Source: Aminithiophilus ramosus
GTDB lineage: Bacteria; Synergistota; Synergistia; Synergistales; Aminithiophilaceae
DNA length: 64,000 nucleotides
NCBI RefSeq assembly: GCF_018069705.1
Contig: NZ_CP072943.1
Span: forward strand, 2,943,945-3,007,944
Direction: 5' to 3'
Positions within the stretch are counted from its first letter, which is position 1. Each line of letters starts with the position of its first letter. A program made the position numbers and the translations under genes. This document shows positions 23,163-36,252 of this stretch, piece after piece. The notes under the pieces were generated by a model. The model had not been told where the DNA came from. It did no database searches and saw nothing but the letters and a program-made list of their open reading frames with translations.

Positions 23163-24797
23163 GTGGAGCGACGGGAAAAGATCCTCGAACTGCTTTTTGA
23201 TCTCTGCCGCATTCCCAGCGTCTCTCCCGACGCCGAAGGAGAGCTTGCCGTCGTAAACCTTCTGCGCGACCGCCTCGCCCGGGAACCCTATTTCGCCGAT
23301 TCCGGCGGCGATCTGCGCCTTCTCGATCTCGAGAACGATCCGTTGGAACGGAAGGCCCTCTGGGCCCTCGTCCGGGCCGAACCTCCCACGGAAGCGACGA
23401 TCCTCCTCATGGGACACATCGACGTCGTCGCCCCCGAACCTCTGGCCGATCTGCAACGGCTCGCCTTCGACCCTCGGGCCTACACGGAGGCCCTCAAGGA
23501 AATCGTCCTGCCTCGAAAGATCGACGACGATCTCCGCTCGGGCCAATGGCTCTTCGGCCGAGGCGTGGCCGACATGAAAGGCGGCGTCGCCGTCGAAACC
23601 ATTCTCCTGGCCGAGGCCTCCCACCGTCCTGCGACCCTTCCCTGCAACGTGGCTCTCCTCGTCGTACCCGACGAGGAGACGAGCTCCCTGGGCATGACGG
23701 GGTCTCTCCCCCACCTGGTCCGCCTTCAAGAAGAGGGGCTCCGTTTTCTGGGCTGCATCGACGCCGAGCCCACGGTGACGACGGGAGAGGGTGAGGAGGC
23801 CTCCATCCACCTGGGGAGCATCGGCAAGATCAACCCCTTCTTCCTCTGCCTCGGCAGACGAGCCCACGTCGGAGAGTACTACGAAGGCCTTTCGGGAGCC
23901 CTCATCGGCTCTCACCTCAACACGATCCTCGACGGCAACGCCGACCTGACGGACCGCCTCGACGGCGTGGCCTACCCCGGCTACGCCTCCATCTGGCAGA
24001 GAGATCTCCGGCCCGATTACGGAGCCACCCTGGCCGACAGACAGGGACTTCTCTACAGCCGGCTCACCGTCGACGGCCTCCCCTCCGACCTCATGGAGGA
24101 GCTGACGGCGGCGGCCCTGGAGGCTCAGCGACGGGCTCTGTCCCAGATCGACGCCTCGGCGCGCTCCTTCTCTTTCCACCGCCCCCGCCCCGTGACGCCT
24201 CCCGCAGGGGAGCCCCGGGTCGTCCGCTACGAAACGCTGCTCGATCAGGCCTCGGCGGCAGGCGTCGACGTGACCTCTCTGACGGAAACCGTCCTCGAAA
24301 AGAGAAAAAGCGAGGACCCTCGCCTCGCCGCCCTGGAAATCGCCTCGGCCCTCCTCGACGCGTCGGGAGAGAGGGGCCCCCTCATCGTCGTGGGCTTTCT
24401 CTTCCCCTACTACCCGCACCGGATCAACGGGGGACGTTCCGAGGGCGACCGCCGCATGGCCGCCGTCGCCCAAGCCGTGGCCGAGGCGGCACGAAGCCGT
24501 TTCGGCCGTCATCTGGGCCTCCGCCCCCTTTTCGAGGGCGTCAGCGACCTGAGCTACTGCGGCTTTTCCGCCGACAGGGCCGAGCTGGATCTGCTGGCCC
24601 GTAACGTCCCGGGCTGGGGCAGGCTCTACCGCTTTCCCCTGGAGGCCCTGGCCTCTCTCGATATCCCCATCCTCAACGTGGGTCCTCTCGGGCGGGACGC
24701 CCACAAGAGCACCGAGCGCGTCCATCTCCCTTACCTCCTCGACGAACTTCCCTCTCTTCTGGAAGTGGCCATGGCCGAGGCAGCGGCCTTTCGCTGA
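23163..24797 (+). CDS. M20-family metallopeptidase/amidohydrolase
   Basis: GHIDVV motif and ArgE/DapE/CPG2-type fold. Co-operonic with the TRAP transporter. Confidence 0.65.
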   Translation: MERREKILELLFDLCRIPSVSPDAEGELAVVNLLRDRLAREPYFADSGGDLRLLDLENDPLERKALWALVRAEPPTEATILLMGHIDVVAPEPLADLQRLAFDPRAYTEALKEIVLPRKIDDDLRSGQWLFGRGVADMKGGVAVETILLAEASHRPATLPCNVALLVVPDEETSSLGMTGSLPHLVRLQEEGLRFLGCIDAEPTVTTGEGEEASIHLGSIGKINPFFLCLGRRAHVGEYYEGLSGALIGSHLNTILDGNADLTDRLDGVAYPGYASIWQRDLRPDYGATLADRQGLLYSRLTVDGLPSDLMEELTAAALEAQRRALSQIDASARSFSFHRPRPVTPPAGEPRVVRYETLLDQASAAGVDVTSLTETVLEKRKSEDPRLAALEIASALLDASGERGPLIVVGFLFPYYPHRINGGRSEGDRRMAAVAQAVAEAARSRFGRHLGLRPLFEGVSDLSYCGFSADRAELDLLARNVPGWGRLYRFPLEALASLDIPILNVGPLGRDAHKSTERVHLPYLLDELPSLLEVAMAEAAAFR

Positions 24798-24855
24798 AAG
24801 CCCCATGGGCGATACGTAAAACATCCAAGGACACCCAAAGACCAGCCAAAACGGC

Positions 24856-24890
24856 ACAACGGGGCTCTCAAAAACGGAGAGCCCCGTTGT
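24856..24890 (-). terminator. Rho-independent terminator at the 3' end of the gas-vesicle operon
   Basis: ACAACGGGGCTCTC loop GAGAGCCCCGTTGT, with a T-tract on the minus strand after the hairpin. Confidence 0.7.
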
Positions 24891-24929
24891 TGGATAAGCC
24901 GATATATAAATAAATTTATCGAAAATTAT

Positions 24930-25193
24930 CTATTCAATATCCGTATTACCTCTATAACGCAGGTTTTTTCGTTCAAATGAAATCAATCCTCCATTTTCGT
25001 CGAGAAAGACATCGTAACGACCCAACACATCCATCGTTTCCGGTATGGATTTACGCTCAAGCCCTTCGACAGACACAATCCATTGACCATCCATCCTAGA
25101 AACTCCCACCACTCTCTCTACAGAAAGTTGAGCTAAAAGAGAAAGATCTTCTCTGGCTTTTTTAATAGCCTCTTCAGCATTCACAATTTTCAC
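24930..25193 (-). CDS. Small hypothetical protein, last gene of the gvp operon
   Basis: 87-aa ORF, AT-rich codon usage like the rest of the island. No recognisable motif. Confidence 0.4.
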   Translation of the reverse strand: MKIVNAEEAIKKAREDLSLLAQLSVERVVGVSRMDGQWIVSVEGLERKSIPETMDVLGRYDVFLDENGGLISFERKNLRYRGNTDIE

Positions 25194-25215
25194 TTCCCAT
25201 CATTATATTTACATT

Positions 25216-25779
25216 TCAAGCTATAGAGTTAATCCTATTTTCTAAAACGGATTTGATTTTAAGCATATCACGAGAACGCAACAAGAATGAACCACCTGAC
25301 ACAAGAGAGAAATCCATGACATCCATTTCCAAACTACCTTCATCTTTCTTTTTAGTTACATTAAATATATTTACATCCGACAAAAAACATCTCAATATGA
25401 CATTTTTAGAGTTGTTTTGAGAAACAATTAGTTCGTTAGATGTAATACAAAGAAATCCTGATTTCCAATTTTCATAAGGACAATTATTTTTTAGTATAGA
25501 AACAAATGTTTTCAAAAAGACTTTTTCATTCAAATTTAAAATAAGTTTATTTTTTTCTGTTTCTTCAATGGCATATGCCCTTTGAGCTTCATCCCAATCA
25601 TTCCATATGCCATAACGAAGCATTGTCTCCATTCCAGCAATACAAGCCTTAAGACTTAATCCTAACAAAGGAATTCCAGCAACATGAATAATTATATCAG
25701 CATGAAGAACAATTCCTTTATCTAGAATTCTCTCTAACAAATCAACCAAAGTTGCATCGTAATCCCTAGTAGGCTTCAT
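25216..25779 (-). CDS. GvpJ/GvpM-family protein (GvpA-like core plus C-terminal extension)
   Basis: N-terminus LVDLLERILDKGIVLHADIIIHVAGIPLLGLSLKACIAGMETMLRYG aligns with the GvpA core. Confidence 0.7.
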   Translation of the reverse strand: MKPTRDYDATLVDLLERILDKGIVLHADIIIHVAGIPLLGLSLKACIAGMETMLRYGIWNDWDEAQRAYAIEETEKNKLILNLNEKVFLKTFVSILKNNCPYENWKSGFLCITSNELIVSQNNSKNVILRCFLSDVNIFNVTKKKDEGSLEMDVMDFSLVSGGSFLLRSRDMLKIKSVLENRINSIA

Positions 25780-25788
25780 GCTAACGCT

Positions 25789-26625
25789 TTATTCCACGTA
25801 GTTAGAGCTAATACTCCGAGAAATTCCACTTATATCACCAACAAAGCTATAAAGTGGCCAAGGCCCTGTAAATCTGACAGAAAAACTATCATATAATTTT
25901 ATTTCATCCAAAAAATTACCTAAACCGTCAATTTTATCGTTATCAACCATACAGGACAGGTTTAATATCATTTTAGACGAAGCATCAGTTTTTTTAGGCT
26001 TTTCTATTACAATTTCACTGCAGCAAGACAAAACTTTATTATAAAAATAATCAGAAAACTTATTTATTTCAATTAAAACTTCATCCTTAATGGCCTTATC
26101 TAGTTTTTGTTTATACATATAAGCAACTCCCGGAGACTTCAAATCAATATCTTGCTTTAATTTAAGTAGATATTTATTTTCAAAAGCTATTTTATTTTCC
26201 AAAACATCCGTTGCACAAAAAAGCTGGACAACATATTCATTTTTATTTTTAAATCTACGCATCATGCAGGTTAGAGATTCTTGCTCTTCTTGAAGCCATT
26301 TTAATATTACATGATCAGAAGAAAGCTCTCCCTGAGCGCAGACAATCGTATCAAAACTAACAGGGACAACACAATCAAACACCTTACTCGCTTCATCGAG
26401 CACTCGATGATGATCCATCACCCACGCTCGAACTGAATCCGCCTCTGCCGATCGATAAGGCTGCGGAAGACAATCATGAACGATAGCGCATAAATCCCCG
26501 GAGATAATCATGCGAACCGGTTTGCCACCAATCCCCAAAGAAGTGAAAGACACTCTCTCCAAAATCAAGGCAAGACCATAAACGTACCTCCCATCCTCTT
26601 CAAAAGGTGGAAAAACCTTCTCCAT
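25789..26625 (-). CDS. Gas vesicle protein GvpF/GvpL family (copy 2)
   Basis: N-terminal YVYGLALI..GIGG..V motif typical of GvpF/L. Size 278 aa. Confidence 0.65.
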   Translation of the reverse strand: MEKVFPPFEEDGRYVYGLALILERVSFTSLGIGGKPVRMIISGDLCAIVHDCLPQPYRSAEADSVRAWVMDHHRVLDEASKVFDCVVPVSFDTIVCAQGELSSDHVILKWLQEEQESLTCMMRRFKNKNEYVVQLFCATDVLENKIAFENKYLLKLKQDIDLKSPGVAYMYKQKLDKAIKDEVLIEINKFSDYFYNKVLSCCSEIVIEKPKKTDASSKMILNLSCMVDNDKIDGLGNFLDEIKLYDSFSVRFTGPWPLYSFVGDISGISRSISSNYVE

Positions 26626-26696
26626 CGCCAGCGCCCCCTCATTCAGACAAAAAAGGCCCTGTCCTCCATGGCAAACCCATGGCTAAAGCCTCATCT

Positions 26697-27011
26697 TTAT
26701 CTATCAATCTCATCACGCCAACGCTCTGGATTCACAATACGATCCAAAACGTCACCAACCACTTGATCCAATCCATCGCGCACAGCTTGAACCGACTCAA
26801 CAAGGTCATTATCCTTTTTGATTTCTTCTAGAGCAATTTCAAGCTCCATTAAAGCCTCTCCAAGACGCTCACACTCTGCCTCTCGGATAGAGCCTTCATC
26901 CATTCTTTTAACGGCTTCAATTTTAAGAGCATCGCGAATGACTTCAACAAGAGCTACGACCAACCCCAACAACCCCTGCTTCAAATTTCCTTCGTCAATA
27001 TTAAGAGACAT
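26697..27011 (-). CDS. gvpK: Gas vesicle protein GvpK
   Basis: LLGLVVALVEVIRDALKIEAVKRMDEGSIREAECERLGEALMELE matches the GvpK consensus. Confidence 0.7.
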   Translation of the reverse strand: MSLNIDEGNLKQGLLGLVVALVEVIRDALKIEAVKRMDEGSIREAECERLGEALMELEIALEEIKKDNDLVESVQAVRDGLDQVVGDVLDRIVNPERWRDEIDR

Positions 27012-27014
27012 TAA

Positions 27015-27455
27015 TTACTCCTTGTCAAGCGTTATCTTCAACACACCATTCCTATATTCAATTATATGAGACATTTCGTTTGGTATTCTAGGGACGACGT
27101 TCACGGATGCGATTAAAGTAATTTTATTCCCTTCAGAATATATATCCATACATGAAAATTCTTTATTTAATCCTATCTCATCCACAAACCACCACTGGAA
27201 AAACCATTGCTTACCGTCACACGGATCTATTTTTGATTCTTTAAAAACAATAATGGAGTATCCTAATATTTTTTCAGAATTTGTATTTATTATATGTTTT
27301 ATTCTATAAATTATCTCAAAGTCATTCCTACAGCTTAAATCCCGTCTAAGATCCACTATGCTTGCATGACGTCTCCACCAAACGTCCAGCAGCAAAATTT
27401 TGCTTATTGAATCTATGGAATCCAACAAGTCAGATAAAAAATTCCTGTTGTCCAT
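27015..27455 (-). CDS. Hsp20/alpha-crystallin-like small protein (possible GvpH-type chaperone)
   Basis: C-terminal ...EYRNGVLKITLDK resembles the Hsp20 C-terminal beta strand. Weak overall. Confidence 0.4.
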   Translation of the reverse strand: MDNRNFLSDLLDSIDSISKILLLDVWWRRHASIVDLRRDLSCRNDFEIIYRIKHIINTNSEKILGYSIIVFKESKIDPCDGKQWFFQWWFVDEIGLNKEFSCMDIYSEGNKITLIASVNVVPRIPNEMSHIIEYRNGVLKITLDKE

Positions 27456-27463
27456 ATTTAAAT

Positions 27464-27844
27464 TTAATCTACGATAGCAATGGATTCTTCGTTTTTATCC
27501 AACAAAGACTCTCTAGCCCTGGCACTGACCCATCCGCACCAAGGACAACATTTCGACAAAAGCTCTTCCGTAAAAACTCGCTTTCCGCACTGAGGACATG
27601 TTTCCTTGCCTTTTTGCGCTTCTTTCCAGGCATCTGTATTGTAATTTGTTCCACTTGGAAATTCCAATCCATAATGAGCCGCAGTTTCGAAAGAAGCTAA
27701 AGCAGCTCGTATCTTTATTCCAAGCAATTCAACACCTGCTACAGACACGCAAATATCGGCATTGATAACTAAACCCTTATCTAAAACACGGTCGATAACA
27801 TCGACCAGCGTCGAACTTGCCTCTCGTGTGGGTTGCATAGACAT
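27464..27844 (-). CDS. GvpJ/GvpA-family protein fused to a C-terminal zinc ribbon
   Basis: LVDVIDRVLDKGLVINADICVSVAGVELLGIKIRAALASFETAAHYG (GvpA-like) followed by CPQCG...CPWCG. Confidence 0.7.
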   Translation of the reverse strand: MSMQPTREASSTLVDVIDRVLDKGLVINADICVSVAGVELLGIKIRAALASFETAAHYGLEFPSGTNYNTDAWKEAQKGKETCPQCGKRVFTEELLSKCCPWCGWVSARARESLLDKNEESIAIVD

Positions 27845-27853
27845 CGACCGTTC

Positions 27854-28090
27854 TCACCTCTCAGCCTTTATTTTTTTTAATCTTTCTATTAGATCATTTT
27901 CGAGTTCATCGTATTCATTTTCACTCAAGTTTCCATCTTCCAATGATTTTTGAATTTCTTTAAGCCTAGCTCTAATGGCATCTTCTGTCATCAGGCCTTC
28001 CTTATCTATTTCTTTTTTAATGGCAAGAATAATTTCTTTCGACAAAATAACGGGGATACCTATGAAAATATCTTTTATTAAACCTAACAT
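27854..28090 (-). CDS. gvpG: Gas vesicle protein GvpG
   Basis: 78 aa. MLGLIKDIFIGIPVIL...GNLSENEYDELENDLIERL matches the GvpG family pattern. Confidence 0.7.
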   Translation of the reverse strand: MLGLIKDIFIGIPVILSKEIILAIKKEIDKEGLMTEDAIRARLKEIQKSLEDGNLSENEYDELENDLIERLKKIKAER

Positions 28091-28842
28091 GGTTTTTTAA
28101 AATAATTCATTTCCACATTCAAAAACGTATAGGGAGGCAGAGGAGCAATACACTTAAAATTAAATTTATTATTATACTTTTCATCCAATTTATGGATTGA
28201 TTTTATAAAATCGTCTTTATCGGCTTTTTTTACAAGAAATGAGGCGTTTAGCACATTTTCTATACCAGATTCAGAGTCTTTATGGCTATCAAGAGCTATA
28301 TTTTTGAAATAACCATATATATCATCAGAATAAATATTTCTTTTGTCTAGAAGCAATGATTCTACTAATTTGCCAGCATCTATTTTAATATTTTGTTTTT
28401 CTAACAAAGAAGATGTTTTATTAATTTTAGATTTAATTTTAACTATTTCCTTGTTGTTGACTTCAATTTCTTTTATTTCTGAGTTATAATCCCAATAAAC
28501 CTTGACAACCACCTCAATGACGCCTGATAACCGATTTATTTCATTGACTATGGATTCTTTGCTTTTTTGCAGTAAATCCATCATTTCATTCTTAGATGCA
28601 AGTACACCAAATCCTGCTGGGAGTAAAGTGTATTTATCCATCAAAAATTCTTGCACGGTCGCGTGTGTGGAAATATTTTTCCTGGTCGGATATATTTCAT
28701 CGTTACCAAAGTCACTGACAACAGCAGAAATTTTATCTATACTAATAGAATAAACTTTTGAACTATTAATACCAATTACATCAAAAATCTTAAAATCAGG
28801 CTCATTTATAATACCATAAAAATATTTATTTTTAATATTCAT
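28084..28842 (-). CDS. Gas vesicle protein GvpF/GvpL family (copy 1)
   Basis: KYFYGIINEP...KVYSISIDKISAVVSDF is the GvpF/L N-terminal signature. Confidence 0.65.
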   Translation of the reverse strand: MNIKNKYFYGIINEPDFKIFDVIGINSSKVYSISIDKISAVVSDFGNDEIYPTRKNISTHATVQEFLMDKYTLLPAGFGVLASKNEMMDLLQKSKESIVNEINRLSGVIEVVVKVYWDYNSEIKEIEVNNKEIVKIKSKINKTSSLLEKQNIKIDAGKLVESLLLDKRNIYSDDIYGYFKNIALDSHKDSESGIENVLNASFLVKKADKDDFIKSIHKLDEKYNNKFNFKCIAPLPPYTFLNVEMNYFKKPC

Positions 28843-28846
28843 AAAA

Positions 28847-30973
28847 TCACCTCTTGCGTTCCATTACACTATTAATGGCTAAATCAAAATGATTTTTAAG
28901 TATAACAATTTTATTTTCACCGTTTGAAGCCATATATTCTCTTAACGCCAAGCGAGCTGCTTCTTGACATAACTGCTTGAGCTCTGCTCCAGAAAAATCT
29001 TCTGTACGCATAGAAATTTCTTCAAGCGAGACATCGCCATCCAAAGGCATTTTTTTGCTATGTATCTTAAGGATTTCTATCCGATCATCTTTATCTGGAA
29101 GATTGAAATTTAAAATTAGATCAAATCTGCCCGGGCGAATGATCGCTGGATCTATCAAATCTTGCCTATTGCTTGCAGCTAAAACTAAAACATCTTTGAG
29201 CTCTTCAATTCCATCCATTTCGGAGAGGAATTGGCTGATTACTCGATCAATAACTTGAGAATCTCCAAAAGAATGTCTTAGAGGGACCAATGAATCAAAT
29301 TCATCGAAAAATAAAATACAAGGGCTTGCCTGTCTCGCTTTACGAAATACCTCTCGAACTCCTTTTTCCGACTCTCCAACATATTTAGACAAAAGCTCCG
29401 AGCCTTTTACGGATATGAAATTAATTTCACTTTCGTTGGCCATGGCCTTCACCACTAACGTTTTACCCAATCCGGGAGACCCCGAGAGCAAGATGCCCTT
29501 CGGCGGCCGAAGCCCCACGCTCGCAAGCAGCTCGCCATGCTTAAGCGGCCAAGCCACCGCCTCCGAAAGCTGCCTCTTGATCTCGCGAAGGCCACCGACA
29601 TCTTCCCAGCTCACGTCGGGCACCTCCACGAAAACCTCCCGAATGGCCGATGGTTCCACTTCTTTGAGGGCACCAAGGAAGTCGTCCATCATCACTTCCA
29701 TTTGCAAAATATCGATGTCGGCGACCTCTTCGATCCGACAGGTGTAATCGGGAACGACCCTCCGCAGGACGCTCATGGCTGCCTCCCGACACAGGGCCTC
29801 CATATCGGCACCGACAAAACCGTGAGTCACTCGCGACAACCTCTCCAAATCGACATCGGAGGCGAGCGGCATGCCTCGAACGTGGATGCTCAATATCTCC
29901 AACCTGTCCCTCTGGTCCGGTATGGCGATCTCCAGCTCCCGATCAAACCGTCCCGGGCGACGAAGCGCCGGATCCAAGGCGTTGGGTATATTCGTCGCAC
30001 CGATGACAATGACGTCACCGCGCGACTCTAGGCCATCCATCAGAGCCAACAGCTGCGCGACCACCCGCCTCTCCACCTGTTTCTCCCCGCCCATTTCCTC
30101 CCGCTTGGGGGCAATGGCATCGATCTCGTCGATAAAAAGAATCGACGGGGCATTCTTTCTGGCCTCTTCAAAAAAGCCCCTCAACCTGGCCTCGCTCTCA
30201 CCATAAAACTTGCCCATAATTTCAGGCCCCGTCACATGGACGAAATACGCTGCCGTTTCACTGGCGACAGCCCTGGCGATCAGGGTTTTTCCACAGCCCG
30301 GAGGACCATAGAGCAATACCCCCTTCGGGGGATCTATACCCAGTCGATCGAAAAGGCGGGGACATTTCAGAGGAAGTTCGATCATTTCTCGTATTTTTTT
30401 AAGCTCTCTTGACAATCCACCTATATCTTCATAGGATATTTTGGATCTTTTAGTTGAATTTTGTTGAATTTTATCTAATAAAATACGAGTTTTTTGCGAA
30501 ATAAGGACAGGTCCGCCAGGAGTGGTATTATTGACCAAAAAATCCTGATTCCTGTTTCCCATAAAGTTAACTCTTATGAAATCACCCTCTATAACGGCAA
30601 GACCTGTCAAAATGGATCCTATATAGGAAATATCCTTATCTCCAAGTGGAATACGAACGTTTGACAAAGGAGCTATGACAATCTTTTCCGCTAATTTAAA
30701 ATCTATCTTTATTACATTGACGTTATTGTTCAATGACGTTTTTGCATTGTTTCTTAGAGTCCAATCCATTTGAATTATTCTTTTTCCTCGATCTTGCGGA
30801 AAAGTAGGCATTATTTTAGCTATAGTTTGCCTTTCTCCTTCAATCTGAACCACATCGCCTACACTTACACCCATTATTTCCATATCTACAGGGTCTATGC
30901 GAACAATTCCTCTCCCGACATCTTTTAAATTAGATTCAGCTACAATAAATACTGAATTATTGATTTTTCCCAT
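28847..30973 (-). CDS. CDC48/VCP-like AAA+ ATPase (N-domain plus two AAA domains)
   Basis: CDC48-type N-domain (SNLKDVGRGIVRIDPVDMEIMGVSVGDVVQIEG) and two Walker A motifs, GPPGCGKT and GSPGLGKT. D1 is encoded by a GC-rich block. Confidence 0.8.
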   Translation of the reverse strand: MGKINNSVFIVAESNLKDVGRGIVRIDPVDMEIMGVSVGDVVQIEGERQTIAKIMPTFPQDRGKRIIQMDWTLRNNAKTSLNNNVNVIKIDFKLAEKIVIAPLSNVRIPLGDKDISYIGSILTGLAVIEGDFIRVNFMGNRNQDFLVNNTTPGGPVLISQKTRILLDKIQQNSTKRSKISYEDIGGLSRELKKIREMIELPLKCPRLFDRLGIDPPKGVLLYGPPGCGKTLIARAVASETAAYFVHVTGPEIMGKFYGESEARLRGFFEEARKNAPSILFIDEIDAIAPKREEMGGEKQVERRVVAQLLALMDGLESRGDVIVIGATNIPNALDPALRRPGRFDRELEIAIPDQRDRLEILSIHVRGMPLASDVDLERLSRVTHGFVGADMEALCREAAMSVLRRVVPDYTCRIEEVADIDILQMEVMMDDFLGALKEVEPSAIREVFVEVPDVSWEDVGGLREIKRQLSEAVAWPLKHGELLASVGLRPPKGILLSGSPGLGKTLVVKAMANESEINFISVKGSELLSKYVGESEKGVREVFRKARQASPCILFFDEFDSLVPLRHSFGDSQVIDRVISQFLSEMDGIEELKDVLVLAASNRQDLIDPAIIRPGRFDLILNFNLPDKDDRIEILKIHSKKMPLDGDVSLEEISMRTEDFSGAELKQLCQEAARLALREYMASNGENKIVILKNHFDLAINSVMERKR

Positions 30974-31502
30974 TTTTAGGAGATATTTCTATTTTAAAAA
31001 TTCCATTTAAATAAGAATGAAGGAGTGTGTTTTGGTTTACATTGAATTCAGTTTTGATTTCCTTAAAGTATTTTCTTGATTTGCTCTCTGCTTGAACAAC
31101 TATAGTTCCATCTGTTATTTCAATCATAATATCTTCTTCATTCACGCCGGGCATTTCTAGAACTATAACCATTCTATCTTTTTCGTTAAAAATATCCGTT
31201 ATAGGTTCCCTGACTTCTTGTTGGTTATTTTCCAAATCAGATATTTTTTTATTTCCAAATGTTTCAATTATCGGCTTGCCTGCTAAATTTTTTACAGTAA
31301 AACCATAAATGCCCCGAATTCCTTCGGGGCTTTCAATAGATCCCTTTTTTTCAACTACATCAAACCTATCGACCATATCCAATAAACTACCTAACCCCTT
31401 AAAAATTCCTTCAAAACTTATTTTACCTTTTTTGAAATCTATCTCTATTTTATCTTTCTCTTCATCCGGATTTTCTTTTTTTTTACTATTATCCATTGTC
31501 AT
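30957..31502 (-). CDS. Hsp20/alpha-crystallin family chaperone (GvpH-like)
   Basis: Alpha-crystallin domain: MVIVLEMPGVNEEDIMIEITDGTIVVQAE ... NGIFKIEISPK. Confidence 0.75.
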   Translation of the reverse strand: MTMDNSKKKENPDEEKDKIEIDFKKGKISFEGIFKGLGSLLDMVDRFDVVEKKGSIESPEGIRGIYGFTVKNLAGKPIIETFGNKKISDLENNQQEVREPITDIFNEKDRMVIVLEMPGVNEEDIMIEITDGTIVVQAESKSRKYFKEIKTEFNVNQNTLLHSYLNGIFKIEISPKNGKNQ

Positions 31503-31535
31503 TTACGCAACACCCCGATCTAGGCGCTAAAACAT

Positions 31536-32465
31536 CTAATAATTCTCAACATTACCATATGGTTCTCTTTCAATATTGCTGGCTGCATCAATAATAAGCC
31601 TAGAAACCGAGGCTCTTTTTTTACTTGATATAATTGGCAATATAGTATCGTTGCATATTTCAATAAATCTATCTTCAGATATGTTGCCCTTTTTATCCAA
31701 AAAATCTATATATTTCGCTATTTTAATAGAAGACCGCACAGTGGGAGTAAGTTTATCCGAATAGTTATTTCTTATGGTTCTTATTAATTTAACTATTCTA
31801 ACTATTTCGCTTTCACATAAATCCACTCTACCTCGCACAATTGCTACTTCCGTCTCTTCGTCAAAGCTGCTTAACTCCAATGTTACCAGTCTATCTTTTA
31901 ATGCATCTTGACTTTTATAAACACCGGCATATTCCTCTGGGTTGGACGTGAATATCGCCCTGAAGTCGGGATGAACCCTAACGTAAGACTCTTTACCATT
32001 TCTACCCGAAACAGGAAGTATTTTACTCTCCAGCACTGATAAAAGGACGTTATTGGCCTCTGGTCTAGATCTAGTGAATTCATCATAGACAAGCGTCAGT
32101 CCACGCTCACACGCGACAGTCAGCCTGTTATCAAACCACTGAGACGTCATTACATCTTCTGTCTTGACAACAGACCTAATAAAATTGTCTTTAGTGTAAT
32201 TATGACGATATCCGGACACATAACCGACCAGATCGGAAGTTCCAAATTCATGATCACCACAAATCAAAACGACAGGACGACCTATTTTTGCGGCCACATG
32301 CATCGCTAAAGTCGTCTTGCCCACTCCAGTAGGTCCGCTTAAATGAATAGGAAAGCCACAGGAAGAATAACTAAGGGCTTTTTCGGATATTTTTGATATG
32401 TATGGAGTTTCTACAAACTCCAAGCTTGGCCTTGAAGTAATAAGCGTCATCCTTCCTCGATCCAT
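31536..32465 (-). CDS. gvpN: Gas vesicle protein GvpN (MoxR/CbbQ-like AAA+ ATPase)
   Basis: Walker A LSGPTGVGKTTLA, Walker B LVYDEF. Size 309 aa is typical of GvpN. Confidence 0.8.
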   Translation of the reverse strand: MDRGRMTLITSRPSLEFVETPYISKISEKALSYSSCGFPIHLSGPTGVGKTTLAMHVAAKIGRPVVLICGDHEFGTSDLVGYVSGYRHNYTKDNFIRSVVKTEDVMTSQWFDNRLTVACERGLTLVYDEFTRSRPEANNVLLSVLESKILPVSGRNGKESYVRVHPDFRAIFTSNPEEYAGVYKSQDALKDRLVTLELSSFDEETEVAIVRGRVDLCESEIVRIVKLIRTIRNNYSDKLTPTVRSSIKIAKYIDFLDKKGNISEDRFIEICNDTILPIISSKKRASVSRLIIDAASNIEREPYGNVENY

Positions 32466-32492
32466 AACTTAAATACCTCCAAAATCACAGGA

Positions 32493-32873
32493 TCAGTAAT
32501 GCATTTCAAAATTCTCATCATTCACTGCGTCGCCATCGCTTGAGTCGCACATATCAGAGCTATTCTCTTTTTGCAGTTCTCTGCGCAACTCCATCAGGGC
32601 TTTATTTTTGTCAATAATAACTGCAAGCTTCTTTCTGGAATTCAAAAGGCGCGCCCTGGCTCTCTCGACCGATTGCAACCTAGAGGCGAAACGCCTCTTC
32701 TCTCGCTCGAGCATCGTTTGGAAATTGCGATCCTTTTCCAAATCCGGAGCATCGTTATTATCAAAGGCACGAAACAAAGCACCTGTCGTCCTGGCTTTTT
32801 GGCCACGGAAAACTTCAGCATTGCTTTTAATATGGCGCATTGTTCGAAGTTTAGTCAGAGCTTCACTTTTCAC
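32493..32873 (-). CDS. Hypothetical basic protein between the coiled-coil gene and gvpN (possible GvpO-like)
   Basis: 126 aa, helical and charged, with an acidic C-terminus. No firm motif. Confidence 0.4.
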   Translation of the reverse strand: MKSEALTKLRTMRHIKSNAEVFRGQKARTTGALFRAFDNNDAPDLEKDRNFQTMLEREKRRFASRLQSVERARARLLNSRKKLAVIIDKNKALMELRRELQKENSSDMCDSSDGDAVNDENFEMHY

Positions 32874-33888
32874 CGATTTCTACCTCCCCTTCTGACAAAG
32901 GGAAATAAAGCTTACCCTCCCTTCGAATCCCGCCCTCATCCAAGAGATTTCTTGACACTCGTCCCAACGCCACTGTGGCCATGCCCAACTTATCGGCCAC
33001 ATCGGTCAGGGAGATACCTTCAGGATGCGCCTTAATGACTGACAAAAACCTGGTCTTAAGATCTTCCCCCGTCACAGCAAAGTCCTCTTCCTCCGTTGCG
33101 CGTTCAAGTACGGAGCAATCCGGGTCCCTCTCATCCGCCTCGGGAGAGGCGTCATCTCTTGATTCGACGGAAGGTTCGGCTTCAACCTCATCGTCTTCGC
33201 AAGACTCTTCATTCACAAGGCATTCCGACCAAACCGCTCTCGTCTCCTCAAGCAAGTCAATAATGACCTGCCTTTCTTTGTTTAAATTATTTCTTAACAT
33301 ATCTACGCTTTGTTTCATGTTGGAAATATCCGCTAATCTTTTTTGACGTAATTCATCGAATTGATTTTTTAATGATTCACGAATGTCACTTAAAATATCT
33401 TTAACCTCTTTATGCAGGTTTTCTATCTCAATCTTACGGTTATTGATATTCAATCTAACATTTTCATTATACTGTTTTTTTAGCGATAAAATCTTTTCTC
33501 TTGATGCTTCTATTCTCTTCTTATTTTCTTCTTTGAGCTCTTCTCTTATATCTGGGGTATTTTTTTGGGATGCCAACCTTGACGCCTCAAAAAGAAGATC
33601 AAGCTCTTTTTTGAAGCCATCCAACATATCTGCCGTGGATTTTTTAATTTCCATGACTTCTTCTTCTATTTTCTTTTTATTTTGAACCAGCTTTGATTTC
33701 ATCGACTCTTTCTCATCAAATCTCTCGGTAGAAAAGGTTTTAAGTGTTTCATCTATTGTTTTTTTAAGATCTTGGAGATTTTGATATCTATCGGCATGAG
33801 AATCAGCCAACTCCTGAACCAATGACCTAGTCTCTTCCAATAAATTCACAGTCCATCCCTCCTCGGTTATTATGGTTTTAAATCTCAA
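32863..33888 (-). CDS. Coiled-coil protein with C-terminal winged-helix (MarR/ArsR-like) domain
   Basis: About 230 aa of heptad-rich, K/E-rich sequence, then ISLTDVADKLGMATVALGRVSRNLLDEGGIRREGKLYFPL. Confidence 0.5.
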   Translation of the reverse strand: MRFKTIITEEGWTVNLLEETRSLVQELADSHADRYQNLQDLKKTIDETLKTFSTERFDEKESMKSKLVQNKKKIEEEVMEIKKSTADMLDGFKKELDLLFEASRLASQKNTPDIREELKEENKKRIEASREKILSLKKQYNENVRLNINNRKIEIENLHKEVKDILSDIRESLKNQFDELRQKRLADISNMKQSVDMLRNNLNKERQVIIDLLEETRAVWSECLVNEESCEDDEVEAEPSVESRDDASPEADERDPDCSVLERATEEEDFAVTGEDLKTRFLSVIKAHPEGISLTDVADKLGMATVALGRVSRNLLDEGGIRREGKLYFPLSEGEVEIGEK

Positions 33889-33939
33889 AACCCATTATTT
33901 TGCAATTTAACATAAAAATTCATCTAAATGCATTAATAA

Positions 33940-34641
33940 TCAAATTTCATCGCGTGTTGCGATAGGTTCTATTCTATATTGCGATCTTTCATCTTTAAAT
34001 CTACCCAAAGTGGCTCTTACTTCTTCTCTTCTTAAATCCCTATCTTGTTCTCTTGTAAATCTACTTTTTATTGTTTCAAGCTGCCACATGTCTTTCATTT
34101 CTAGGGAGCTGGACCGCTCCAACAGGCGGCGCATAGAATTGTTCCATTCCAACATTATTTTTTTATAGCATTGAATTTTATACTGAAATTTACATAATTG
34201 CTGAAATACGTCGTCTCCGTTTTTTTGATAAGTCCCTTTCATTTCATCAACGAAACATTCCAGCTCTTTTTTATCTATAGTCTTTTTAATGCAATTATAA
34301 ACTTTAGTTTTAAGAGTTAGCGTCAACTCTATCTGTTCTTTTAAATATCTCCTCAGAGATAGCTCGATTTCTTGACTATCAGCTATAAGAACGTCTCTAT
34401 CTTTATCTATTCCATCAAAAAGCCTATTCATGAAGTTATCAAAATCTTTTTTTCTGAAAGAACAATTTCTCGCTGCCATCTCTCTCAAGTCTACGCGCAG
34501 GTGATCGCGCTCTTTATGAAGGATTTCCAAATCCTCCGCCAAGCTCGACGTGACCTCATGGACCGTAGAGACCATCTCTTCCACCATGAGGATCCTTGAC
34601 GAATGGGCATCGATAAGATCAAGGAGCATACATTCATCCAT
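33940..34641 (-). CDS. Hypothetical helical protein immediately downstream of the gvpA array (GvpC-position)
   Basis: ORF extends to 34689, but the compositional change suggests the start at MDECMLLD (34641). Confidence 0.4.
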   Translation of the reverse strand: MDECMLLDLIDAHSSRILMVEEMVSTVHEVTSSLAEDLEILHKERDHLRVDLREMAARNCSFRKKDFDNFMNRLFDGIDKDRDVLIADSQEIELSLRRYLKEQIELTLTLKTKVYNCIKKTIDKKELECFVDEMKGTYQKNGDDVFQQLCKFQYKIQCYKKIMLEWNNSMRRLLERSSSLEMKDMWQLETIKSRFTREQDRDLRREEVRATLGRFKDERSQYRIEPIATRDEI

Positions 34642-34732
34642 TTTCGATACTTGGCCTCCCGAGGAAGGGCATATGGCCTGGCAGGGCACGCTTGCGAAAC
34701 AAGGGAACCCTGGCAGACCTCCACAAAGGAAC

Positions 34733-34942
34733 TTACGCGGAGATCGGAGCCGTCAGGCCGACCGCTTCGGCGTACTTCAGGTAGGTCTCCACACCGGCGA
34801 CGACCACCCGTGCCTCGACGGTCAGAAGTTCCAGCCCCAACAGGGAGATCCGCACCCACGCATCGATCACGAGACCCTTGTCGAGAATCCGATCGATGAC
34901 CTCAGCCAGACCCGACGAAGCCATAGACGTCTGCACTGCCAT
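34733..34942 (-). CDS. gvpA: Major gas vesicle structural protein GvpA (copy 3 of 3)
   Basis: [69 protein letters not shown] is canonical GvpA. Confidence 0.95.
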
Positions 34943-35011
34943 TTCGTTCCGCCTCCTTACGAGTCTTTCCTTGGGCTTTCCTTGCCTCCTGCGGGAGGGC
35001 GCCGCCGATCC

Positions 35012-35221
35012 CTACGCGGAGATCGGAGCCGTCAGGCCGACCGCTTCGGCGTACTTCAGGTAGGTCTCCACACCGGCGACGACCACCCGTGCCTCGACGG
35101 TCAGAAGCTCCAGCCCCAACAGGGAGATCCGCACCCACGCATCGATCACGAGACCCTTGTCGAGAATCCGATCGATGACCTCAGCCAGACCCGACGAAGC
35201 CATAGACGTCTGCACTGCCAT
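35012..35221 (-). CDS. gvpA: Major gas vesicle structural protein GvpA (copy 2 of 3)
   Basis: Protein identical to the other copies. RBS GGAGG 8 nt upstream of the ATG. Confidence 0.95.
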
Positions 35222-35290
35222 TTCGTTCCGCCTCCTTACGAGTCTTTCCTTGGGCTTTCCTTGCCTCCTGCGGGAGGGCGCCGCCGATCC

Positions 35291-35500
35291 CTACGCGGAG
35301 ATCGGAGCCGTCAGGCCGACCGCTTCGGCGTACTTCAGGTAGGTCTCCACACCGGCGACGACCACCCGTGCCTCGACGGTCAGAAGCTCCAGCCCCAACA
35401 GGGAGATCCGCACCCACGCATCGATCACGAGACCCTTGTCGAGAATCCGATCGATGACCTCAGCCAGACCCGACGAAGCCATAGACGTCTGCACTGCCAT
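35291..35500 (-). CDS. gvpA: Major gas vesicle structural protein GvpA (copy 1 of 3, promoter-proximal)
   Basis: Identical GvpA. RBS AGGAGGTG upstream. AT-rich promoter region at 35510-35640. Confidence 0.95.
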
Positions 35501-35509
35501 TTCGTTCAC

Positions 35510-35650
35510 CTCCTTTCTTGTACGCTAAACTTGCAGAATACTACATCAGCATTCTTCAAGGAACAAGGCCTTTTTAGCATTTTTTAATAAATATTTATAC
35601 TTCTTGACATGAGTCTCCGTCAGACAGGGGCAATAATATTAGAAGATACT
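35510..35650 (-). promoter_or_regulatory. AT-rich promoter region for the gvpA-led operon
   Basis: Only AT-rich stretch upstream of gvpA. Contains TTGACA-like and TATAAA/TAATAT-like hexamers. Exact -35/-10 pairing not resolved. Confidence 0.4.
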
Positions 35651-36252
35651 GCTCTGTTCTCCGCCTTGTTTCATTTTTTTGGAAAACACGACCAACAGCA
35701 CCCCCGGCAATCGCTTCAGGGGAGACAAGACAGACCAGCACCGCAGGACCTCGGAGAGGCCCGCGTACGAGAACGAACCCACAGCCGGATTCACCTGGGG
35801 CTCAACCCCAGCACGACAACCCTGCTACGGCGACGGAACAGGCGAAAAGGGGAGAGGAGAGGTAACATAGGGAGAACAGCGGAGAGGAAGATGGGAAGGA
35901 ACGGCGTCGAACGTCGTTTTCGCTTCGCTGCACCTGTGAAGGGAAGGCCAATAGAACAAGACGAACTATTGAAAATTGCAACCTTACAAGCAGATTATAG
36001 CACCTGATTGCCTCTGTCAAGGACCGCTTTTTCTCTTTATCGTGGACGAAGAGGGCTCGTCTCCGCCCGTGGGGAAGGCTCGGAAAGCCCCTGGCGGAAG
36101 GGGACGGGCTGTCGCACCATGACGGCGTCCAGGAAGACGTCTTTCGAGGCTTTTGACCGCCCGAATCGGCTCTGGCTCGCGAAAACAGGGAGAAAACGGT
36201 CGGTCCGGGATGCCCTTCGGGCAGTCTTCACCGCTCCCGACGGGAGGCCTCC

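Follow-up and report, generated by a model that had tools for sequence, protein, structure and literature searches.

A predicted CDC48/VAT-type unfoldase encoded beside a GvpH-like small heat-shock protein in a widespread type of gas vesicle gene cluster

Introduction

We report a predicted unfoldase of the CDC48/VAT type that is encoded, next to a GvpH-like small heat-shock protein (Hsp20), within the gas vesicle (gvp) gene cluster of Aminithiophilus ramosus, a member of the Synergistota, and whose gene neighbourhoods across bacteria indicate that it is a dedicated component of one widespread type of gvp cluster and not a local oddity. The analysis covers a stretch of 64,000 nucleotides of this genome (assembly GCF_018069705.1, contig NZ_CP072943.1, forward-strand positions 2,943,945 to 3,007,944), called the window below and used as the reference for all coordinates. 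It follows up an earlier note, made from the letters of the window, which had singled out two overlapping open reading frames (ORFs), one for a protein with a CDC48 N-domain and two ATPase domains and one for an alpha-crystallin Hsp20, had placed gvpN and a second Hsp20-like gene nearby, and had proposed that the pair lies outside the described gvp machineries.

For the ATPase, this proposal agrees with the literature that we searched. No paper linking CDC48, a VCP/p97-type protein or an unfoldase to gas vesicles or gvp genes was found in full-text literature, and the literature on gvp-cluster ATPases, on Hsp20 and on gvp clusters across phyla gave no link to CDC48, most subscription journals lying outside the scope of both searches. 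In the passages available from reviews of 2022 and 2024, the AAA+ ATPase named for gvp clusters is GvpN, and CDC48 goes unmentioned. The association of CDC48 with gvp genes and the breadth of this association appear to be undescribed; the sequences themselves are public under the name 'CDC48 family AAA ATPase'.

Results

All five sampled homologues of the A. ramosus CDC48 protein (90, 69, 66, 65 and 64% identity) are encoded in gvp clusters that share the core gvpN–Hsp20–CDC48–gvpF–gvpG. A scan with CDC48 alone as query, over one genome per GTDB species, yielded 80 closest loci at 56-66% identity, which by their record titles represent about 15 phyla. The taxa encountered were Chloroflexota, Atribacterota, Acetothermia, Desulfobacterota, Nitrospirota, Acidobacteriota, Planctomycetota, Bacteroidota, Ignavibacteria, Omnitrophota, Cloacimonadota, Latescibacterota, Marinimicrobia, Sumerlaeota, Aerophobetes, Actinomycetota, Clostridia and Binatia. 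Genes of the gvp type surround CDC48, on the same strand, in 75 of these 80 loci, usually in the order gvpN–Hsp20–CDC48–gvpF. The five loci without a gvp match retain other members of the neighbourhood: in two (L042 and L062), CDC48 still has a GvpH-like Hsp20 at its side, and in three (L039, L050 and L066) a gene for a TraB-like protein that is described below.

Adjacency was counted on a set of 90 loci, made up of the 80 genomes, nine contigs from the sampling of 64-90% identical homologues and one plasmid locus, with some duplicates among them. An Hsp20 gene lies at most 2.5 kb upstream of CDC48 in 68 of the 82 loci that have enough upstream sequence, and gvpF/L directly follows CDC48 in 66 of the 80 that have enough downstream sequence; a gvpN homologue is visible in most related loci with sufficient upstream sequence. 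The association also appears from the other side, as all three contigs found with Hsp20 as seed carry CDC48 in a gvp cluster. Plasmids of cultured alphaproteobacteria show the pairing too: the annotation of Methylosinus sp. C49 plasmid pMSC49b reads gvpH–hypothetical–'CDC48 family AAA ATPase', and a Methylocella tundrae plasmid carries an Hsp20 gene followed by hypotheticals and by a shorter protein annotated as 'AAA family ATPase' (490 residues), a putative counterpart. CDC48 is likewise present in gvp clusters of Desulfobacteraceae metagenome-assembled genomes (MAGs), which are similar in size to the 23.4-kb cluster of Desulfobacterium vacuolatum (DSM 3385, FWXY01000008:1268-24724) from which E. 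coli produced vesicles at 30 °C in the cloning work of Hurt et al. (2023; PMC10344784). Among the best 120 matches to a Desulfobacteraceae CDC48 profile none is named for D. vacuolatum, and its cloned cluster is at most a candidate carrier of CDC48.

The relationships of these proteins were assessed by neighbour-joining on an alignment that included VAT and 75 full-length representatives of the wider family, drawn from a library that records neither names nor genomic context. The gvp-linked CDC48 proteins are 57-68% identical to the query, against at most 51% for VAT and every other full-length representative, and they form one clade, which takes in one further representative of unrecorded genomic context. 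Members of the clade without gvp context are few and nested inside it. The Methylosinus CDC48, at 51% identity, is as far from the query as VAT is, but its nearest neighbours are clade members. This pattern would fit a single old capture of CDC48 by gvp clusters, of which a simple distance tree is no proof.

The earlier note had described CDC48 for this one cluster and had counted absence from all related gvp clusters as evidence against its proposal. The survey finds the gene in many of them, and the existence of a conserved, gvp-specific clade makes the finding stronger than that note supposed.

The CDC48 gene occupies positions 28847..30973 on the minus strand, starts with ATG and encodes 708 residues, exactly as first proposed, and its product is 100% identical to the NCBI entry 'CDC48 family AAA ATPase [Aminithiophilus ramosus]'. 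The proposed architecture of N-domain, D1 and D2 is borne out by Pfam, which assigns CDC48_N to residues 9-90 (E=7e-22), CDC48_2 to residues 113-164 (E=4.9e-9) and finds AAA (E=2.7e-88) and AAA_lid_3 (E=2.2e-29) twice each, and by the NCBIfam model TIGR01243 ('CDC48 family AAA ATPase'), which the protein matches with 891 bits, the curated threshold being 802.65. Measured against the respective NCBIfam cut-offs, the possibility that the gene encodes a fragment of FtsH (476.6 bits, below 600) or ClpA (28.8 bits, far below 993), which the note had raised against itself, is rejected, as is the anti-phage ATPase IteA (246.8 bits against 510); PAN, too, stays under its cut-off as a whole-protein assignment. 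The nearest solved structure is that of Thermoplasma VAT (PDB 5g4f, E=3.6e-208), with 51% identity over residues 5-681.

By Pfam, the N-domain (residues ~9-164; 30482..30949, minus strand) comprises the double-psi barrel and beta-clam of the substrate- and adaptor-binding domain of this family. It contains 32 alignment columns that are at least 95% conserved in the gvp-linked clade, about half of which differ from VAT. The two ATPase ring domains, D1 (residues ~176-445; 29639..30448, minus strand) and D2 (residues ~446-690; 28904..29638, minus strand), carry complete sets of motor motifs. In D1 these are Walker A GPPGCGKT (223-230), the pore loop KFYG (255-258), Walker B DEID (282-285), the sensor-1 N and the arginine fingers of RRPGRFD; in D2, Walker A GSPGLGKT (498-505), the pore loop KYVG (530-533), Walker B DEFD (557-560), the sensor-1 N and RPGRFD. 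Judged on an alignment of 87 clade members, Walker A, Walker B, sensor-1 and arginine fingers are conserved in both rings, and aromatic residues mark the pore-1 loops of D1 (K[FY]YG; KYYG in VAT) as well as those of D2 (K[YWF][VI]G; KWVG in VAT). Unfoldases that thread their substrates processively are characterised by such aromatic pore loops, and human p97 lacks the aromatics in D1. The C-terminus (...SVMERKR) does not show the HbYX motif, the penultimate tyrosine is not conserved in the clade, and the C-termini of clade members are short and basic. As the motif is missing, nothing points to docking on the 20S proteasome. From the 51% identity to VAT, for which hexamer structures have been solved, we infer that CDC48 would be a functional, homohexameric double-ring unfoldase of the VAT type.

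The Hsp20 gene (30957..31502, minus strand, ATG start) encodes 181 residues. The CDC48 ATG lies inside its end ('...aaaATGggaaaaatcaaTAA'), so that the two reading frames share 17 nucleotides, the overlap that had been noted before. The same 17-nucleotide overlap is kept in the 90%-identical homologues, and more distant homologues show gaps of 2-17 nucleotides. From this overlap, translational coupling of Hsp20 and CDC48 is predicted.

The Hsp20, tightly linked to CDC48 as noted before, is assigned to the alpha-crystallin proteins on several lines of evidence. Pfam HSP20 (PF00011) matches with E=1.1e-5 and 25.9 bits against a cut-off of 20.8, and a sequence search retrieves Sulfolobus Hsp20.1 (PDB 4rzk) with E=1e-13. 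In the AlphaFold model, residues ~97-176 have predicted local distance difference test (pLDDT) values of ~86-91, the N-terminal half being of low confidence, and the modelled alpha-crystallin domain superposes on 4rzk with a template-modelling (TM) score of 0.90 and a root-mean-square deviation of 1.1 Å (Foldseek).

The same protein is related to GvpH. BLASTP against Halobacterium GvpH gave only a local match of 21 residues, so profile methods were needed to establish the relation, and Pfam GvpH (PF05455) does not match the A. ramosus Hsp20 at E<=0.01. A hidden Markov model built from 77 Hsp20 proteins of these clusters finds the GvpH of Halobacterium pNRC100 with E=3.8e-12 (hmmsearch), in an alignment that spans an N-terminal helix motif and the alpha-crystallin-like domain. 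End-to-end comparison of the Hsp20 family with hhalign gave 90% for Halobacterium GvpH, 99.3% for the RefSeq GvpH of Methylosinus pMSC49b and 99.9% for the Hsp20 of the Octadecabacter gvp cluster, and several database homologues match both HSP20 PF00011 and GvpH PF05455. By these profile comparisons, the 181-residue Hsp20 is predicted to correspond, in bacteria, to GvpH, an accessory protein already known, and a GvpH-like ORF occurs in 85 of 93 related loci. In correction of the earlier note, the Hsp20 would thus be no new addition to gvp clusters, and Hsp20 genes in such clusters were recorded by Castillo & Saier 2010 (PMC2963123).

The second Hsp20-like gene named in the note (27015..27455, minus strand, 146 residues) has no Pfam HSP20 match. 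The profile built from its homologues nevertheless aligns to the Hsp20 family of the cluster (hhalign 98.5%, E=2.3e-15), with ~31 residues deleted internally, and on account of this match and deletion we read the ORF as a predicted divergent, truncated paralogue of GvpH/Hsp20.

Some GvpH-like Hsp20 homologues are longer, at 230-257 residues, with a helix-turn-helix domain at the N-terminus (Pfam HTH_3 or HTH_17; P0331-P0343, P0366, P0369, P0373, P0380 and P0387-P0389). These proteins may be regulators built on a GvpH scaffold.

Further ATPase and chaperone genes accompany CDC48 in the related clusters. A single-domain ArsA/Get3-like ATPase of ~311 residues (Pfam ArsA_ATPase, E=2.4e-82) is present in 24 loci and lies directly upstream of CDC48 in 20 of them; in every locus inspected it fills the gap between Hsp20 and CDC48 (for example L053, L057, L058, L069, L070, L075, L079, L085, L089 and L100). 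The resulting putative three-gene module Hsp20-ArsA-CDC48 is an extension of the ArsA-Hsp20-gvp association described by Castillo & Saier in 2010. The TraB-like protein, conserved and 195-250 residues long, occurs in 50 loci, often adjoining CDC48 (for example L027:6255-6842, L090:9267-9863, L039, L042, L050 and L066), and also in loci with no other gvp gene in view. Its invariant residues are P8, H11, G17, W36, W47, Q68, D69, E109, E117, R144, D145, G167 and H170. Matches to Pfam TraB_PrgY_gumN, all below threshold, were obtained for 11 of 20 members (best E=8.6e-4), and a PDB profile search with the ~195-residue protein returned nothing significant; it may be a hydrolase partner of CDC48.

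Two contigs go further. One, L100, combines Hsp20–ArsA–CDC48 with a GvpL–DnaJ J-domain fusion; in the other, the Geobacter MAG locus L098 (JACOUQ010000008.1), a two-domain ArsA, a GvpL–DnaJ fusion and an Hsp70 occur besides Hsp20 and CDC48, making its gvp cluster a predicted full chaperone suite. The A. ramosus cluster contains neither ArsA nor the TraB-like gene and represents a minimal version, with GvpH, CDC48 and the truncated GvpH paralogue. Because holdases, J-domains, Hsp70, Get3-like ATPases and CDC48 have been repeatedly recruited to gvp clusters, the gene content argues that CDC48-type clusters would supply a proteostasis toolkit of their own, directed at the hydrophobic proteins of the GvpA family.

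CDC48 is absent from the gvp clusters of Halobacterium pNRC100 (gvpMLKJIHGFED-ACNO), Octadecabacter arcticus pOA238_160 and Spartinivicinus ruber plasmid pA. The Octadecabacter plasmid, with gvpN–Hsp20–gvpF–gvpG, has the same order with CDC48 left out and offers a natural comparison.

In A. ramosus, CDC48 and Hsp20 form part of a complete gvp cluster on the minus strand (24930-35509), which by Pfam and NCBIfam contains gvpA together with gvpN, F/L, G, J/M, K and O as core accessory genes. Read from 35509 downwards, it begins with three tandem gvpA genes (34733..35509; Pfam Gas_vesicle), a repeat family with a period of 279 nucleotides in which two copies are identical. Three conserved ORFs of 249, 341 and 126 residues follow (32493..34689), which belong to no Pfam or NCBIfam family. 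Their homologues hold the same position in many related clusters (tblastn), they stand where gvpC stands in cyanobacterial clusters, and the product of the 341-residue ORF resembles an extended coiled coil that has an acidic linker and, at the C-terminal end, a small domain.

The MoxR-like AAA+ ATPase gene gvpN (31536..32465) is confirmed at its proposed place by TIGR02640 (331 bits, cut-off 266.8) and precedes Hsp20 and CDC48. A gvpF/L gene (28084..28842; Pfam GvpL_GvpF, E=4.6e-44) starts 4 nucleotides past the CDC48 stop and is followed by gvpG (27854..28090; Pfam GvpG), the GvpA-family gene gvpJ (27464..27844; Pfam Gas_vesicle, best NCBIfam match halo_gas_GvpJ), the truncated GvpH paralogue and gvpK (26697..27011; Pfam GvpK). 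The cluster closes with a second gvpL/F copy (25789..26625; Pfam GvpL_GvpF, E=4.2e-47), a gene for a gvpM-like GvpA-family protein of 187 residues with a C-terminal extension (25216..25779; Pfam Gas_vesicle, best NCBIfam match halo_gas_GvpM) and gvpO (24930..25193; Pfam GvpO, E=8.3e-19), all on the minus strand. Since the ORF coordinates from gvpN through gvpK leave intergenic gaps of only 3-33 nucleotides, or overlap, we read this stretch as a single predicted operon. Consensus scans for promoters and terminators over 24500-36200 returned sites no more frequently than in shuffled sequence and give no information on operon boundaries.

The cluster is a low-GC island (~0.38-0.41) in a chromosome that surrounds it with ~0.63-0.70. 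The three gvpA copies have a host-like composition (34733-35509; GC 0.62, GC at third codon positions (GC3) 0.77-0.80), and all accessory genes of the cluster (24930-34689) look foreign (GC 0.28-0.46, GC3 0.23-0.47). The same split is seen in Aminirod propionatiphilus (L095) and in a related MAG (L096). Among 18 other CDC48-type clusters no split is this large, and in most of them the GC3 of gvpA is far nearer to that of its neighbours. The split points to one of two possible histories: after a transfer, the most highly expressed gene re-adapted its codons, or the cluster is a chimera.

The island occupies one shared chromosomal site in A. ramosus, Aminirod propionatiphilus CP074691.1 and MAG JAIVOV01, flanked by chemotaxis-receptor genes on one side and a peptidase M20 / TRAP-transporter operon on the other, and the CDC48 proteins of the three differ by 0-7 residues. 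No tRNA genes were found at its borders, nor long direct or inverted repeats other than the gvpA tandem, and no integrase was found among the flanking genes inspected. In L096, gvpJ, gvpK and the 126-residue ORF among the gvp genes are left uncalled, which may reflect decay.

Discussion

The conserved neighbourhood makes it highly probable that the function of this CDC48 gene is tied to gas vesicles. As to what that function is, the reading that we prefer, and hold with middling confidence, is that GvpH and CDC48 form a gvp-dedicated pair of holdase and unfoldase that would serve quality control of GvpA-family subunits during assembly. Under this proposal, GvpH would be an ATP-independent holdase for the hydrophobic, aggregation-prone subunits of the GvpA/GvpJ/GvpM family, and the CDC48 N-domain would engage subunits that are bound to GvpH, aggregated or mis-assembled, possibly with GvpH as adaptor. 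The engaged subunits would then be threaded through the D1/D2 pore, and the released, unfolded chains could be used again via GvpF/L and GvpN or be degraded by host proteases. What the sequences show is the identity of the gene, its intact motor motifs and its conserved linkage to gvp genes and to GvpH; which substrates it takes, whether GvpH is its adaptor and in which direction subunits are passed on belong to the proposal. For haloarchaeal GvpH, prevention of GvpM aggregation is reported (PMC9501494), and excess shell protein has been found to cause proteotoxic stress in heterologous hosts (PMC12848028).

Several observations weigh against this proposal or narrow it. The conserved N-terminal motif of GvpH occurs also in clusters that have no CDC48 and is thus no evidence for docking of CDC48. 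An adjacent Hsp20 is missing in 14 of 82 loci, so that the pairing is frequent and not obligatory. No protease is encoded in the A. ramosus gvp cluster and CDC48 has no HbYX motif, so that neither points to a fate of the unfolded product. Gas vesicles form in Halobacterium, whose cluster we inspected and found to lack CDC48, and also in Anabaena, Priestia megaterium and Serratia, whose model clusters are not known to carry the gene; CDC48 is consequently an accessory of one cluster type and not universally required. Gene order, moreover, cannot separate a role in assembly from one in disassembly. The position of CDC48 in mid-operon, among assembly genes, favours a role during assembly.

Disassembly or recycling is the main rival reading. 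CDC48 would pull GvpA from collapsed or unwanted vesicle walls and GvpH would capture the released subunits, lowering buoyancy or recovering protein. As segregases, CDC48/VAT enzymes draw subunits out of stable assemblies, the aromatic pore loops of both rings suit processive threading, and the TraB/PrgY/GumN-like protein of 50 related loci, weak as the similarity is, could be a partner hydrolase. The specific mechanism of gas-vesicle degradation is also named as still to be explored in a 2024 review (PMC10903477). Against these points, a CDC48 gene amid an operon of assembly factors would be co-expressed with assembly and not later, the A. ramosus cluster holds neither a TraB-like gene nor a protease, and there is no sign that the vesicle wall is within reach of the N-domain. 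We regard disassembly as unlikely, if well worth weighing.

CDC48 might instead be a motor of assembly proper, driving insertion of GvpA into the growing wall or nucleation, beside GvpN or partly in its place. Its usual place between gvpN/Hsp20 and gvpF/gvpG, genes of nucleation and chaperone functions, would suit such a role, and the ATP-driven steps of vesicle growth are described as poorly understood in the same review (PMC10903477). The persistence of gvpN in most related loci gives no sign of substitution, however, enzymes of the CDC48 family unfold or extract rather than assemble, and clusters without CDC48 yield normal vesicles, which makes this reading improbable.

We rate still lower the idea that CDC48 unfolds or destabilises a regulator of vesicle formation. 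A precedent exists in the haloarchaeal NTPase GvpD, which lowers the levels of GvpE; two-component or sigma-54 regulators flank many related clusters, and a helix-turn-helix is fused to some of the Hsp20 homologues. The A. ramosus cluster, on the other hand, encodes no regulator, CDC48 is unrelated to GvpD, and its genetic linkage is to GvpH, ArsA and gvpF and not to regulator genes. That CDC48, as a member of a family of general unfoldases and with its sub-threshold similarity to IteA, is a general-purpose or unrelated (for instance defence) protein that came to lie by chance in a horizontally acquired island is scarcely credible, given linkage to gvp genes in 75 of 80 species of about 15 phyla, conserved position and strand, and a clade of its own, which contradict a chance neighbour.

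Beyond the preferred reading of holdase and unfoldase in A. ramosus, a wider generalisation can be put forward tentatively, as possible though short of probable: that a bacterial CDC48 lineage of archaeal type was captured by gvp clusters and, together with GvpH and elsewhere with Get3/ArsA-like, TraB-like, J-domain and Hsp70 proteins, constitutes a dedicated machine for extracting and unfolding shell proteins. If true, this would be the first enzymatic system that remodels, proof-reads or dismantles the gas-vesicle wall, and it could account for the failure of many environmental gvp clusters after transfer to hosts that lack adequate proteostasis. Gas vesicles serve as acoustic reporters, and of the clusters mined so far most do not work in E. 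coli; the proteostasis module of natural clusters could guide the engineering of such reporters. Recent reviews ask how the hydrophobic GvpA stays soluble, is delivered and is proof-read, and whether any enzyme degrades or remodels gas vesicles. A gvp-specific VAT-type unfoldase beside GvpH in about 15 phyla is a concrete candidate for both questions, and its recognition places one clade of bacterial CDC48 proteins in a defined cellular setting.

Comparison with known systems places the A. ramosus pair among several partial likenesses. The gvp clusters with an ArsA homologue and Hsp20 (PMC2963123) likewise carry an extra ATPase and an Hsp20 alongside gvp genes in several phyla, but the gas-vesicle passages of that study contain no CDC48, and the A. 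ramosus cluster has CDC48 and no ArsA. Haloarchaeal GvpH (PF05455) belongs to the same wider family as the A. ramosus Hsp20; the latter, however, scores as HSP20, and haloarchaeal gvpH sits between gvpG and gvpI, without CDC48. GvpN resembles CDC48 in being an ATPase of the same operon and differs from it in consisting of a single AAA_5 domain, without an N-domain or a pore-loop threading architecture; it accompanies CDC48 and does not stand in for it.

With the small heat-shock proteins IbpA/B and the ClpB-DnaK system, the proposed pair would share the combination of a holdase that keeps clients recoverable and a double-ring AAA+ threading motor. The motor here is a classic clade CDC48 instead of ClpB, the genes lie in a structure-specific operon instead of a stress regulon, and the cooperation of GvpH and CDC48 is putative. 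Actinobacteria have Cdc48-like double-ring ATPases of their own, Cpa and Msm0858, which to our knowledge have either a link to the actinobacterial proteasome or no assigned role, and for which we know of no link to gvp genes. The closest likeness is to VAT and archaeal Cdc48, which share with it the N-D1-D2 architecture, the motifs of the Walker, sensor and arginine-finger sites and the aromatic character of the pore loops of D1 and D2. From these, the A. ramosus CDC48 is set apart as a bacterial protein, encoded in a gvp operon, in a separate clade and without HbYX, and its clients are likely to be gas-vesicle proteins, in place of the general proteasome substrates of VAT and archaeal Cdc48.

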